A stretch of DNA of 64,000 nucleotides from Eledone cirrhosa (Eukaryota). A program made the translations under genes and the position numbers. The notes beneath the pieces are model-generated. The model did not search any database. It was not told where the DNA came from and worked only from the letters and a program-made list of their open reading frames with translations. Positions 24,201-30,200 of this stretch are shown piece by piece (the stretch's first letter is position 1; every line of letters begins with the position of its first letter). The stretch covers positions 496,001 through 560,000 of the forward strand of contig OZ024747.1 of assembly GCA_964016885.1 (NCBI GenBank), read 5' to 3'.

Positions 24201-27200
24201 GGTTCATGTAGCAACACCTGCTGTCCCAATGAAAACAGCCAGACAGCTGGAAATAGTCACCATTCTGGAAATATATACATTCAAAACTGTTGATAAGACA
24301 AAAAGTACAAAACATAGAAACTCTGTTAATAATTGTCTTGACTAATAATTTATGTGGAACAAAACATGTGACTAACACATCATCACCATTTAACATTGAT
24401 CTTCCACTCTAGCATGGGTGAGACAGGTTGTTCCATTTGAGGTTAGTCAGGTCAGGTGACCATGTCTTGCTCATAGAGAACTGATTCTGGCTTGGTTTCT
24501 ATGGCTGGATGCCCTTCCTAATGCCAATCACATTTACAGTGTGTACTGGGTTCTTTTTGTCATGACATCTATTTGACCACTTTGTATTAAAACGATTAGA
24601 TTACATTTATGTTTAGATATCACAGGCTCATTCTTTTGTAATATGAATTCAGACTCAGTTAACTTTATATATCATATTTGATACGATATATATCAAATGT
24701 GGGAACAAAGACAAGAGAATCACAGTCACGATACTAACCATGGAATACAACATACACACCCTGTGAATCAAGGAAGCCCTTTGATAAAGCAAATAGAACC
24801 CCCATTAACAACGGAGGAGTGAGGCATAAAGGCTAATTTGGTACCGGCACCATAACACATATATATGAAATGACAGAACAAATAAGTTCATAAATAAATG
24901 AACAAACAAGGCCTAGAATCAGTGACACAGCAACAAAAATAATGAACAATCAAGTAGTCAATGACTGACCTTCATCCCAATGAAACATACCAACTACTAC
25001 ATCTGATTACTAACCCCTGTCCAACCCACATGCATGAATGTCAAGCAAGAATCTCAATCAATTCTAATAAACACGAGCCATTCAGAGGCACAGAAAATCC
25101 CTTTTTAATATCCAAAGTTTCCTTTGGATCCCCCTGGAAATGGATGATACATCCAAAATATAGGGACCAAAAGACCTGAAGAGTGGCCAACAAATAAGTG
25201 AATAAGACATCAGGCTATAAATTTTACTTATAATTATGTATGCATGACTGTTCTTTAGTGGTTTAGTCTGTTTTAGCCAACATCAGATCTATGTTGGCGC
25301 AAGATGAAAAGTCTGAAAGATTTAAATGGTTACTAACCTTTTTAATATTCTCGAGGATCTGTAATGAGAATTGGAAAAGAAGACATATAATTTACTCCTT
25401 TCATTATGTGTGTGAGTTTGTGTGTGTGTGTGTTTGTGTAGTAGTAGTGGTAGTAGTAGTAGTTATAGTAGTAGATAAAGATGACACAACAGGAGAAGGA
25501 AACAAAGCATGGAAGTTAAAAACAAACACCATGTACTCACACAAACACTATGTACTCACACAATAACTATGTACTCACACAATATCTATGTACTCACATG
25601 ACACAACAAATACAAAATAAAAATTACATTTAAATCATTGAATATTTACTTACCTTTTTTAAGTTTTGGAACTGGAAAGACAGAAAAGAATTAGAAATAA
25701 TACCCATTTAGAGATATATTTAGTATAATAAATCTATATAATACGAAAAGTCTGTGATTGCTTGCTTGTCTGTAATGTAATATAGCCAAAAGGGTGTGTA
25801 GCAAGCTACTTTCCTTTGATGCATTGGTAGGCTATTCGTGCATGATTTGGTTAAGTCAGGCCAATTGTGAGCCACACATGAATATATTTTACCAACTTCC
25901 GCCCAAACAAAGATTTTTTCCCACTTCTTTTGATATACTCTCTTTATGCTGCTTCAATCGTGGAAAGGTAAATACCATTTTTCTTTTGCCGTTCGACCAC
26001 TAGCCAATATGTAATGACAACAACATAACTAAGGCCTGGACAGCACCTCGGCCAGTCGACCGTACCTTCTAAACTCTTAATTTGTTAATTCCTTTGTTTG
26101 ACATGTCAACTCAACTTAATTCTTTGTAATCAGTTTGTAAATAAATTATGTAAAAACATTGTAAAGTCTTGTGATGCTATTACCACAGCCCTAGCCTTTA
26201 AATGTGATGTGGTAAGATCCTTTCCAGAGTTATTATAACTGCAGCAACAGAACCTGGGATTTACAGTCGAACCTCAGTTCGACTAACATTACCATATAAC
26301 AAAACCGTTACATTTATTGATACAACAAAACCATGGTGAATTGGCAGTATCGGAAGGGGGTCGAACCCATGCTTTCCAGCATAGTTACAGTCTGAGTTCA
26401 AATGCCATCAGGGTTAACTTTGCCTTTCATCCTTATGGGGTCGATAAAATAAAGTACCACTAATGTACTGGGTAATTGCTGGCCTTGTGCCAAAAGTAGA
26501 AACAATTATTATTATTCTTGTTGATATTCCTATAATTAATATTTTTCTGCTAAACTGGTGACTATTATGGGAAAATACTTTGAGAGGAAGTTTATCTTGA
26601 AATGGGAATAAAACAAGTTTCGCGTAAATTGAAGCACGCATTCCCAAGATACGGGGTTTTTCCAGGTACTTTCATAAACAGAGAGAAAGAGATAGTGGTT
26701 GTGAGAGAGTAGATTGAAAGAGAGAGAGAGAGAGAGAGAGAGACAGAGAAGGAGAATAGAAGAGAGAGCTGGTGGTGTTGTATATATATATATATGTGAG
26801 TGTGTGTGTATATATATGCGTGTGTGTATATGTGTGTGTGTGTGTCTATGACCAGTGTATATAGATCACAGACACCCACATATATATATATATATATACA
26901 CACATACATATTATGTATACACACGCACACATTTATATATATACATACACACACGTATATATATATATATGTTTCATTTTGCATTATATACATGCCTGCG
27001 TATATTTTAATTATTTAAAAATTATTTTTTAAGTGAACATGATTTTTTTTAAAATATTTTGAAGATGAATGTGACCCAATAAGTCTAATATATCTATAAA
27101 ACTATCACAATTAAATATATTTTTATGAATATTAATATGTACATCTGGGGAAGTCGTTGGCATTTATAACCATCTGTCTATCTTGTCTTACAAATAAGAA

Positions 27201-30200
27201 GTCAATCTTGTGTGTATATTTTTAAAATATATTTACCTTCGTGTCCAGCTGACCCTGCTACAAAGAGAAATTGGAAATGCCAGATTAGAAATCTTCTGCA
27301 ACCAGCAGTTTAATTGTTGTTCATCAATTTTTTAATTGGAAACAATATATGAATATTTTACCTATAGGCCTGGTAATTTAAATAAATGGTTTAATGATCC
27401 AGCCCCTATAGTGTTTCTCAGCCATGATAATCAAAGACAGATCATACATCTGAAGTAGTTTCTTTTTTCACTCTCCAACGATACCTTATCTGACTTTGAT
27501 AGAAAGTGCTCCTCATCAAACTGGCACCCATGGTATGTCACATGCCATGCTTGCCCTTCCCTAGTTGCACCTCTGCCCAGCATGCCTCTCTCTCACCCTT
27601 TTGTATTTGACCATTAAGACTATCTCTTATTAATAGTTCCAACATAGTTGTTAAAATTAATTCGTAATAATCTCTATTTCTTCTACAATTTCTTACATTT
27701 CTCTATTACATTTCCCTTTGTTTTATTGTAGGAGTTTCCCCTATGTAGACTAAATTTAAAAGAATATATTTACTCACCATTTTTCTCAGCTCCTTCTGCT
27801 GCAAAAAGAAATGAAAATGCCAAATTAGAAATATTCAAATGTTATCTTATTATAGTAATGCTGTATATGTGAAATAAGATCTAATATATAACTGAATTCG
27901 TCAGTAAAATCTGCATGGCACAATTTGCCATCAAAATGTTTTACACTTGGCAATAGAGCCACTTCCCTGAAGGAATCAGGGTCCTGTCTTCTTTCCTACT
28001 CACTAGCACTTTAGTTTTGGCTAAGTTTTCTCTTAGGCCTTTTGATTCTAAATTTTGTTTCCATAGTTGGAACTTATTTTCTTTATTTAAAATTTATTTT
28101 TAAAAATATATTTACCTGCATGTTCAGATTTTTCTTCTGCAAAGAGAAATTGGAAATGACAAATTAGAAATATTCTGAACCCAGCAGTTTAATTGCTGTT
28201 GATGTTTGTAGAATAATGGGGAAAACTCAATGCAAGGAAGTTGTTAAAACAACAAAATGCTGTCAATGACAAACTCAGGTAAAATTTACCTCAAAGGATA
28301 GAAATCAGCAGCTAGAAATATGTTGGCCCACACAATTGATAGGAAAAGTGGAGCAAAGGAATAAAATGGATGAGAGGAGATCACACAAATATTTAAATAC
28401 TCTCACCAGCTTTTAGGCCGCCTGTGGTGAATGTGTGGGTGTGGGTGTGGGTGTGAGAGTTAGTGTGCGTGTGGGAGAGGGTGTGAATGTGTGTGTGACT
28501 GAATGTGTGTGTGTGTGAGTGATAATGCATGTGGGTGAGAAGCTGCTAGACTTAGAGAACATTGCTTCAGTAAAAGTTGTCTGCAGGAAAAGACAGATAT
28601 ATTTATCTTCTGATTAAGTGACAAAAATCTTTCAAAATACAATCTCAGGTGTTTGTAAGATAGGAAATCTTCAGAGAAACTAAAAGAAAAAGAAAAAGGT
28701 TCCAACTTACAATAGTACCGTTGTCAGTATTGTTTATGGTGGATATTAGCTGAAAAGAATAAATATTTATATATATAAATATATTGAAGTAAATGACGTA
28801 TCATATAAGGTAATCCAAGTAGAGGTTATGAGTAATCTGTACAGTGGACGATTCTAATATGAGTCGTTGTTTGACGTTGTTCGAGGCTTACTTAGTTGTG
28901 GTGTTCAGTTCCTAGGTAAATGGTTCCTGGAGTATTAATAATGAAGGAGTGAAGAATAATAGCTATAAGCTATACAGTAGGGTTTATTCCAAGTATTAAC
29001 ATATGTGATTTTTAGACACATTGGGTCAATGAAACATATGTTAATACTTGGAATAAACCCTACTGTATAGCTTATAGCTATTATTCTTCACTCCTTCATT
29101 ATATATCATCATCATCATCATCATCATTTTATGTCCGCTTTTCCCTGCTTGCAAGGGGGGGACGGGAATTGATTCTGGCTTAATTTCTACAGCTGAATAC
29201 CCTTCCAAACACCAACCTCATTTACAGTGAGTGCTGGGTGCTTTTTTGCTGTGGCGCCTACACGTCCACTTTGCAGTGGAATGATATGGACCCCAGTCCC
29301 TATCATCTCATTTCTACAGCTGAGTAAACTGGAGCAATGTGAAATAAAGTGTCTTGCTCAAGGAAACAACACATCACCCGGTCTGAGAATTGAACTCACA
29401 ACTTTTCGATTGCAAGGCCAATGCTCTAACCACTAAGCCATGTGCCTCCATATATATATATACATATATCATCATCATCATCATCATCGTCACCGTTTTA
29501 CGTCCGTTCTTCCACGCTAGCATGAGTTAGACGGGTTGTCCTGTTGTGGGCAGTATCCGGTCAGCTGACCATGTCTTGCTCATACAGGAACTGATGCTGG
29601 CTTGATTTCTACAGCTGGATGCCCTTCCTAACACTAACCTCATTTATAGTGAGTGCTGGGTGCCTTTTTTCCGTGGGAGGGGGGCATATTGTCTATATGC
29701 TTCACCTTCGGTGGGGGGGGGGGGGGGGCATGTATGTGTATATATATATGTCAGGTCACTCTCGAGTGCTAGTGGTAACATGTAACCCAGTACAACCTGT
29801 TTCATGGTCAGGTTGTCGCCGACTAAACCAGCAACCCCACCAAGCTTGCTTGGGTAGGAGGGTGATATTTGGACACCTTGCGGGATGAAATACAAGCGAA
29901 AAGCAAAGGAACTCAGCAGAGTCAACGGCCATCCAAATAGTACTTTTTTTTTTCACCTGCAAGTGAAAGACCCGCAGTTGTTATCACAACACCTTTGTAA
30001 GAGAGGGAAACTGAAAAAAACCTGTGGCTTTGGAAACATCCAATGATGTTGACCAGTTCTCCTTTTTGGGTAGTGTTTTTAATGCTCAGAGAATGGGATT
30101 GGTCGAGTGCAAGGCCTTTCCACACTTAAAAAAAACCTTCAAAGCACAGGCATTGTTTGTTCAGGATATGTTACAGGTTCGTGTGGCTGGCTGTAGCCTA

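Follow-up and report, generated by a model that had tools for sequence, protein, structure and literature searches.

The window analysed here is a stretch of 64,000 nucleotides (nt) from the octopod Eledone cirrhosa (assembly GCA_964016885.1, contig OZ024747.1, positions 496,001 to 560,000 of the forward strand), and the microexons under study belong to a 43-kb gene on its minus strand, running from 46534 to 3102. In the gene model a signal exon is followed by two exons, of 86 and 141 nt, and then by the 13 exons of the insert; a 99-nt exon and a terminal exon that ends at 3102 complete a coding sequence of about 306 residues (Table 1). The predicted product is likely a distant relative of ferritin without the iron-oxidising residues. 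Molluscan secreted ferritins are known to carry an insertion in the B-C loop, and the microexons likely encode this insertion.

The gene and its microexons

A splice-site scan of the minus strand from 3.1 to 46.5 kb, blind to frame and run with hand-set weights, returned 13 short candidates, 11 of them symmetric and open in phase 0; as controls, the plus strand over these coordinates yielded 2 candidates, neither symmetric, and four flank scans yielded 0 to 4 each. The insert exons, from 36685 to 8406, measure 33, 36, 39, 21, 21, 21, 18, 21, 15, 27, 27, 27 and 45 nt and together encode 117 residues; two of them, at 14799 and 10144, were added to the scan candidates by paralogy or for a strong acceptor. 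Small exons make up 38% of the coding sequence, and exons of up to 36 nt make up 29%. Each microexon is predicted to be spliced into the transcript. Over exons B, C, D and E, contigs from DNA runs of one sample are identical to the assembly, exon A not being among the listed pieces; the four runs behave as DNA from one study.

Four of these exons, A to D, were the subject of the original prediction. They were recovered as minus-strand candidates with AG..GT ends, and each has, as predicted, Leu at position 4 in phase 0. Its proposal of one heptad per exon holds for A, B and C, at 21 nt each, but not for D (FQNLKK), whose 18 nt encode six residues, and exons of seven residues account for only 4 of the 13. 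The paralogous intron contexts of A, B and C were recovered as described, and a genome-wide DNA search found these three copies only. NAGNAG acceptors had been attributed to two exons and are present in all three paralogous ones (CAG AAG, CAG CAG and TAG CAG), and the array, with 13 insert exons of 15-45 nt, is larger than had been claimed.

Phase 0, the frame originally chosen, is the sole one open throughout, in 15 of 15 internal exons, against 7 of 15 in phase 1 and 4 of 15 in phase 2; none of 5000 shuffles left any phase open, a result that is overstated because the exon set was chosen by the authors. Four candidates were excluded from these counts. Two identical 30-nt candidates (15093-15064 and 14677-14648, minus strand) were rejected for weak sites, a microsatellite-like context and copies without differences, and two non-symmetric candidates, at 35688 (17 nt) and 13284 (8 nt), for repeat-like surroundings. 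The 30-nt pair lies inside the tandem duplication that contains G1 and G2 and would add two Cys to the loop if spliced.

With the last exon as query, two proteins, from O. sinensis and Argonauta hians, were retrieved among 1.84 billion; the cluster members of these matches include O. vulgaris and O. bimaculoides, and all are uncharacterised. The homologues are XP_036364934.1 (LOC115219182) of O. sinensis, CAI9733177.1 of O. vulgaris, A0A0L8HS65 of O. bimaculoides and GAB1604366.1 of Argonauta. A profile search returned 3 proteins of 3410 candidates, all octopod, and a word search with exon 3 returned no matches. The O. vulgaris protein matches four window exons, in order, at 49-67% identity (67% between exon 1 and its N-terminus), which defines the extent of the gene and fixes the phase to either side of the array. 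The octopod members of the LOC115219182 family, with 41-67% identity in four exons, are likely orthologues of the window gene; the own-genome search found no close paralogue of it. The 99-nt exon was not among the tblastn rows shown against the homologues, and MAFFT misplaced it. Two O. vulgaris records share their ends and differ in their inserts (234 vs 259 residues), and may be alternative gene models or loop isoforms.

A reading of exons A to D in phase 1 is very improbable. All four are open in that phase and end in G, and GAEK occurs both in the O. vulgaris insert and in exon B read in phase 1; however, this match is not significant (p 0.69), the neighbouring exons at 28749 and 25358 contain phase-1 stops, exon 3 ends and the 4159 exon starts in phase 0, both being anchored by homologues, and the adjoining introns of 574 and 295 nt hold no frame-shifting candidate. 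The D-E junction in phase 0, NLKKIL, also has an Argonauta counterpart, RLKKIL.

Table 1. Predicted exons of the ferritin-like gene, in transcript order (window positions)
Feature	Position	Strand	Remarks
Exon 1, coding part	46459..46534	-	ATG; predicted signal peptide of 25 residues; ends in phase 1; donor gtaaga; hydrophobic core of mean Kyte-Doolittle value 3.3
Exon 2, 86 nt	44441..44526	-	Phase 1 to 0; helix A equivalent; 52% identity to O. vulgaris, 41% to Argonauta homologue
Exon 3, 141 nt	38085..38225	-	Phase 0; helix B equivalent; ligand positions K, N, L; 56% identity to O. vulgaris, E 1e-11
Insert microexon, 33 nt	36653..36685	-	11 residues; splice-site scan
Insert microexon, 36 nt	34559..34594	-	12 residues; splice-site scan; downstream intron paralogous to intron after the 28749 exon
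Insert microexon, 39 nt	28711..28749	-	13 residues; phase 0 the sole open phase; two N-glycosylation sequons
Microexon A, 21 nt	28116..28136	-	KKNLNMQ; AG..GT ends; NAGNAG acceptor
Microexon B, 21 nt	27778..27798	-	QKELRKM; AG..GT ends; NAGNAG acceptor
Microexon C, 21 nt	27237..27257	-	QGQLDTK; AG..GT ends; NAGNAG acceptor
Microexon D, 18 nt	25654..25671	-	FQNLKK, six residues; AG..GT ends
Microexon E, 21 nt	25338..25358	-	ILENIKK; stop in phase 1; overlooked in the original prediction
Microexon F, 15 nt	16044..16058	-	ILKNE; copy of E, 6 nt shorter, in a 310-nt duplicate (94% identical); variant in a DNA contig
Microexon G1, 27 nt	15189..15215	-	DPETNLRKY; phase 0 the sole open phase
Microexon G2, 27 nt	14773..14799	-	DPDANLSQF; copy of G1 via 416-nt tandem duplication; acceptor weak, inclusion doubtful
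Insert microexon, 27 nt	10118..10144	-	ASLLTLLTF; acceptor strong, donor slightly below scan threshold
Insert exon, 45 nt	8406..8450	-	15 residues; splice-site scan
Exon, 99 nt	4061..4159	-	Phase 0; ends CDPH; helix C equivalent; strong splice sites; placed by position and exon-wise alignment
Last coding exon	3102..3269	-	Equivalent of helices D and E; basic tail with Cys as last residue, then stop; 50-52% identity to O. sinensis and Argonauta homologues

Ferritin-like core and position of the insert

Ferritin comparisons of the core were made with the insert removed. Against a profile of 10 ferritins the core scored 31.3 bits (E 7.9e-9 among 1004 sequences), with 11.6 bits as the best of 1000 shuffles, and the O. 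vulgaris core scored 20.0 bits against the same profile. A profile of own-genome ferritin pieces gave 17.2 bits (best of 900 shuffles 9.0), and hhalign of the core against own-genome ferritins gave 66% (E 5.5e-5, 119 columns). A genome search with PF00210 returned 9 matches, the window locus not included. The nearest Atlas features were arthropod secreted ferritins (0.86-0.89), taken as a lead only, and the last exon alone gave Atlas matches below 0.85 only. Sequence matches in the PDB at E<=10 comprised ferritins in 6 of 8 cases, none significant, with a malic enzyme as the top match; a further result of 213 PDB matches (60 shown, all ferritins) was circular because the query alignment held ferritin pieces, and was not used.

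Structure prediction was uninformative. AlphaFold2 (AF2) models on 8-row alignments had predicted local distance difference test (pLDDT) values of 36.1 and 37.5, and Foldseek with these models found no match at E<=0.001. VIA-align returned helical bundles of a generic kind (best Z 8.2), ferritin-like chains appearing only among ties at Z 6.8-7.0, and the Atlas model had template modelling (TM) scores of 0.46-0.59 to matches below the bar, MiaE among these. All four helices and the helix E region retain their lengths and hydrophobic pattern in three genera; a four-helix bundle is the putative fold of the core. An internal duplication, tested on N- versus C-terminal exon pairs, was rejected (p 0.56).

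The exon framework locates the insert. Ordinary ferritins of the same genome carry phase-0 introns after helices A, B and C, and the introns after helix B and helix C of the window gene fall at the same alignment columns. A catalytic secreted ferritin of this genome (C2:269153809-269176599, plus strand) begins with a phase-1 signal exon and carries two phase-0 exons, of 36 and 45 nt, in the interval from helix B to helix C; its insert of 27 residues contains four Cys, and its exon plan agrees with that of an annotated octopod 'soma ferritin-like' protein. The window insert likewise sits between the helix B and helix C exons. These intron coincidences, with the small exons of the paralogue at the same place, indicate that the microexons occupy the B-C loop intron, so that the free-standing stalk of the original prediction gives way to a loop insertion of a ferritin-like protein. 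The insert has 117 residues against 27 in the catalytic paralogue, and its Cys number 0 (2 if the 30-nt candidates count), compared with 5 in O. vulgaris and 2 in Argonauta.

The ferroxidase ligands, which we take to be E27, E62, H65, E107 and Q141 in human H numbering, correspond in the window protein to Y (or L), N, L, Y and L, with a Glu one residue from the E107 column, and they are lost in the O. vulgaris and Argonauta homologues as well. The three-fold channel positions are occupied by Tyr and Lys, and the core is basic, with 29 K+R vs 19 D+E. Exon 1 is hydrophobic and conserved in the homologues; judged by this hydrophobicity it encodes a signal peptide, and the protein is likely secreted. 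No iron-responsive element (IRE) was found among 144 Rfam matches (44-64 kb) or by pattern within 2 kb upstream, the transcript start not having been located.

Lost ligands, Tyr and Lys at the channel positions, a basic core, a very long branch and an insert four times that of the catalytic paralogue would also suit a ferritin fold co-opted outside the cage, as a monomeric or dimeric secreted bundle (in yolk, gland or defence) that bears a variable arm like those of schistosome micro-exon genes (MEGs) and has no iron role. We regard this as rather unlikely, since the helix E region and the four helices keep their length and hydrophobic pattern in three genera, and insect light chains without a ferroxidase centre are reported to be cage subunits nonetheless (PMC5751084).

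Further ferritin-like sequences were observed in this genome. A second divergent gene for a secreted ferritin-like protein appears to stand head-to-head with the window gene, the start codons 16 kb apart, at window 62566-62623 (plus strand) and then L010:508-584, 1031-1183, 2339-2374, 3759-3854 and 4463-4666 (plus strand). It has a phase-1 signal exon, exons for helices A, B, C and D and one 36-nt symmetric loop exon; its core scored 26.1 bits against the ferritin profile, the helix A and B ligands are lost, and three exons scanned gave no Pfam match. The catalytic secreted ferritin (C2:269.15 Mb) has an inverted copy of its own helix-A exon about 57 kb downstream. A ferritin at C2:349.003-348.980 Mb (minus strand) has helix A and B exons followed by a strong 27-nt symmetric candidate (ICDIILGND), but a search of 187 kb downstream of it did not reveal exons for helices C and D. 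At C11:42.354 Mb (minus strand) there is an intact intronless ferritin frame of 169 residues in which most ferroxidase ligands are missing, possibly a retrogene.

Duplicated exons and the helix of the insert

Exon duplication with fast replacement around a kept Leu, proposed earlier, is supported by comparison of duplicate pairs. A and C differ at 9 of 21 positions in the exon and at 7 of 64 in the upstream sequence, and the CTG Leu codon is invariant, as had been reported. Over three independent pairs (A-C, E-F and G1-G2), 16 of 63 exon bases differ vs 19 of 765 intron bases (25% vs 2.5%), and the proportion of nonsynonymous differences (pN) is 0.31 vs 0.03 for synonymous ones (pS; Fisher p 0.02). 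Pairs with B, whose pS of 0.37-0.46 is close to pN, were omitted as non-independent. In the 416-nt tandem duplication, which is confirmed in DNA contigs, 5 of 7 differences fall within the 27-nt exon, and all are replacements. The insert surface is probably under selection by a binding partner.

The same pairs bear on the possibility that the insert is a relaxed spacer, in which exons are copied and then drift, pseudo-exons occur among them, and the excess of exon differences comes from intron gene conversion or conserved splice signals. Insert length and composition do differ wholly among the three species (74 residues in O. vulgaris, 87 in Argonauta and 117 in Eledone), the G2 acceptor is weak, the flanks contain splice signals and the numbers are small. 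Drift nevertheless predicts an exon rate near the intron rate and pS at least equal to pN, opposite to the values found, and the Leu is invariant and helix periodicity significant in two genera; we therefore consider a relaxed spacer improbable.

Periodicity was assessed over the joined exons. From A to F, the columns of the register read K Q Q F L L at position 1, L L L L I E at position 4 and Q M K I I at position 7. The hydrophobic moment of A-F peaks at 100-101 degrees (p 0.0008), and the best 28 residues of the insert reach p 0.002 when corrected for scanning of the whole insert; A-D alone, the extent originally described, give p 0.055. The Argonauta insert contains an amphipathic stretch (p 0.002), but that of O. 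vulgaris is rich in Pro and Cys and not amphipathic (p 0.72), so an amphipathic helix is no constant of the family. We consider an amphipathic helix in the Eledone insert quite probable and a coiled coil a tentative proposal, the two not being separated because 100 and 102.9 degrees are indistinguishable. The kept register of the original prediction is present in that the Leu/Ile stripe continues through D into E; it belongs to the joined stretch and not to the single exon.

A coiled-coil stalk whose length is tuned per transcript by skipping heptad exons had been the first explanation. Consistent with it, every exon of the insert is symmetric, four of them (A, B, C and E) encode seven residues, Leu or Ile recurs every seven residues (L, L, L, L, I), NAGNAG sites are present, and in silico the moment survives loss of any of A, B, C and E (0.38-0.56 vs 0.45), although removal of D lowers it to 0.18. 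The phase-0 flanks in any case demand symmetry, which is also seen in the short catalytic paralogue. Nine of the 13 exons do not encode seven residues (D six and F, a recent copy of E two codons shorter, five), A-C offer one Leu per heptad with a polar second core position (K/Q/Q and Q/M/K), and O. vulgaris lacks the helix. A tunable stalk thus appears unlikely.

The reading that we favour, as somewhat probable, is that about 13 predicted phase-0 microexons encode a 117-residue B-C insertion of a likely secreted, non-catalytic, ferritin-derived protein, and that 21-nt duplications likely lengthened an amphipathic, outward-pointing helix to form a fast-evolving binding arm. A phase-0 intron in the B-C surface loop would accept any symmetric exon, and copies of a 21-nt exon would extend an amphipathic helix without turning its face. 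That a seven-residue exon keeps the helix face would explain the three copies of the module, while replacements around the kept Leu would vary the helix surface. The secreted non-catalytic subunit, of L type (structural, targeting), would co-assemble in cages with the catalytic secreted ferritin and present the insert on the outer cage face, where a receptor or microbial partner could select its sequence. Secretion, co-assembly, the outward loop position and selection by a partner are predictions of this scheme.

A bolder version, which we hold to be unlikely, has octopod non-catalytic secreted ferritin subunits acting as address tags, with a loop cassette that is duplicated, positively selected and alternatively spliced. 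Mixed 24-mer cages with variable helical arms would then offer a MEG-like combinatorial surface for tissue receptors or against iron-stealing microbes, and the head-to-head gene would supply a second such subunit.

Several results weigh against the favoured reading of a ferritin-derived protein with a selected helical arm. Identity to ferritins ranges from about 15 to 31%, with most values near 20%; no Pfam ferritin match reached the curated cut-off in any of 5 gene exons or in either of 2 full homologues; a full-length profile compared with one ferritin gave 1.6%; and the Argonauta core scored 11.9 bits against the 10-ferritin profile, at the level of shuffles. The first intron coincides with that of ferritins only when the exons are end-anchored, not in free alignment, and an unrooted tree of 14 rows gives the family its very long branch and does not place it among secreted ferritins. 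The phase-0 insert aligns with the Argonauta insert at p 0.06, and the non-amphipathic O. vulgaris insert belongs here as well. The selection counts draw on three pairs and 12 synonymous sites, the alignable flanks were picked post hoc, and G1/G2 are situated at an edge of their duplicate, a place at which a similar pattern could arise by intron conversion.

Other window features and comparison with known systems

The remaining features of the window are mostly repeats. Many copies resembling the reverse transcriptase of long interspersed nuclear elements (LINEs) occur in introns, at 5600-7900, 18500-23100, 30900-33700, 40300-42700, 52100-53000 and 57500-59700, and one inverted LINE-like pair (30925-31813 / 32807-33695) spans 889 nt at 97% identity. 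At 47570-48270, about 1 kb upstream of the start codon of the gene, a 30-nt unit is repeated in tandem about 22 times. A perfect 69-nt inverted repeat with a 27-nt spacer (28938-29102) lies 190 nt upstream of the 28749 exon, and similar palindromes occur at 16885-17299, 23578-23825 and 54099-54596. A lone trypsin-like piece (about 350-470, plus strand; Pfam PF00089, E 4e-4) was also detected, with no further trypsin motifs in the 40 kb upstream.

Within the octopods, members of the LOC115219182 family share with the window gene the loss of the ferroxidase ligands and differ from it and from each other in the length and chemistry of the insert. Molluscan secreted ferritins are the closest known systems. 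The yolk ferritin of snails (Lymnaea/Biomphalaria) is a digestive-gland product with a signal peptide, a 42-residue insertion and no IRE (PMC10799875), and the secretory ferritins of chitons have a non-helical B-C loop with four Cys, which modelling places on the outside of the cage and which is a candidate site for a receptor (bioRxiv 10.64898/2026.10.23.761458). The window gene shares with these ferritins the signal peptide, the B-C insertion and the exon framework, and it may share the lack of an IRE, none having been found near the start. It differs from them in lacking the ferroxidase ligands, in an identity of about 20% and in falling below the Pfam threshold. Their inserts have 42 residues in snails and 27 residues in two exons in the octopod catalytic gene, whereas the window insert has 117 in about 13 exons and is Cys-free and amphipathic where the others form a four-Cys, non-helical loop.

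The light chain homologue (LCH) of insects is reported to lack a ferroxidase centre, the heavy chain homologue (HCH) and LCH1 genes being head-to-head in Aedes (PMC5751084). Absence of the ferroxidase centre is shared with insect LCH and vertebrate L chains, putative secretion with the insect chains, and a head-to-head second gene with Aedes HCH/LCH1; here, however, neither of the two head-to-head genes appears to be catalytic, and 16 kb separate their start codons. The searches made found no microexon array in insect LCH.

Among the matches listed in the literature searches there was no paper on the LOC115219182 family or on microexons in ferritin loops, though the 53-sequence tree of the chiton preprint may include cephalopods. 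New here are a Pfam-negative, putatively non-catalytic subunit whose insert is probably helical and a second gene of this kind in head-to-head orientation, the B-C insertion itself being already known. The analysis offers an identity for an uncharacterised, Pfam-negative octopod family, and it suggests a route by which the unexplained molluscan B-C insertion may have grown, through tandem duplication of phase-0 microexons within an ancestral intron. According to the chiton preprint (bioRxiv 10.64898/2026.10.23.761458), the B-C loop is a candidate surface for binding of receptors when iron is delivered to target tissues in molluscs, and a modular, fast-evolving loop would permit exon-by-exon study of its binding. 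The locus further hints that cephalopods have secreted subunits of L type and that a ferritin cage can serve for surface display in nature.

Schistosome MEGs provide the other comparison. They are reported to encode secreted products from small symmetric exons between long introns and show raised replacement rates in the mature part (PMC4350168, PMC10526429). Signal peptide, small symmetric exons, long introns and raised replacement are common to both systems; in contrast to MEGs, small exons here do not form most of the coding region, they lie inside a conserved fold, and there is no homology. Schistosome VAL-6, in which a MEG-like part occurs within a known family, is the nearer architectural parallel.

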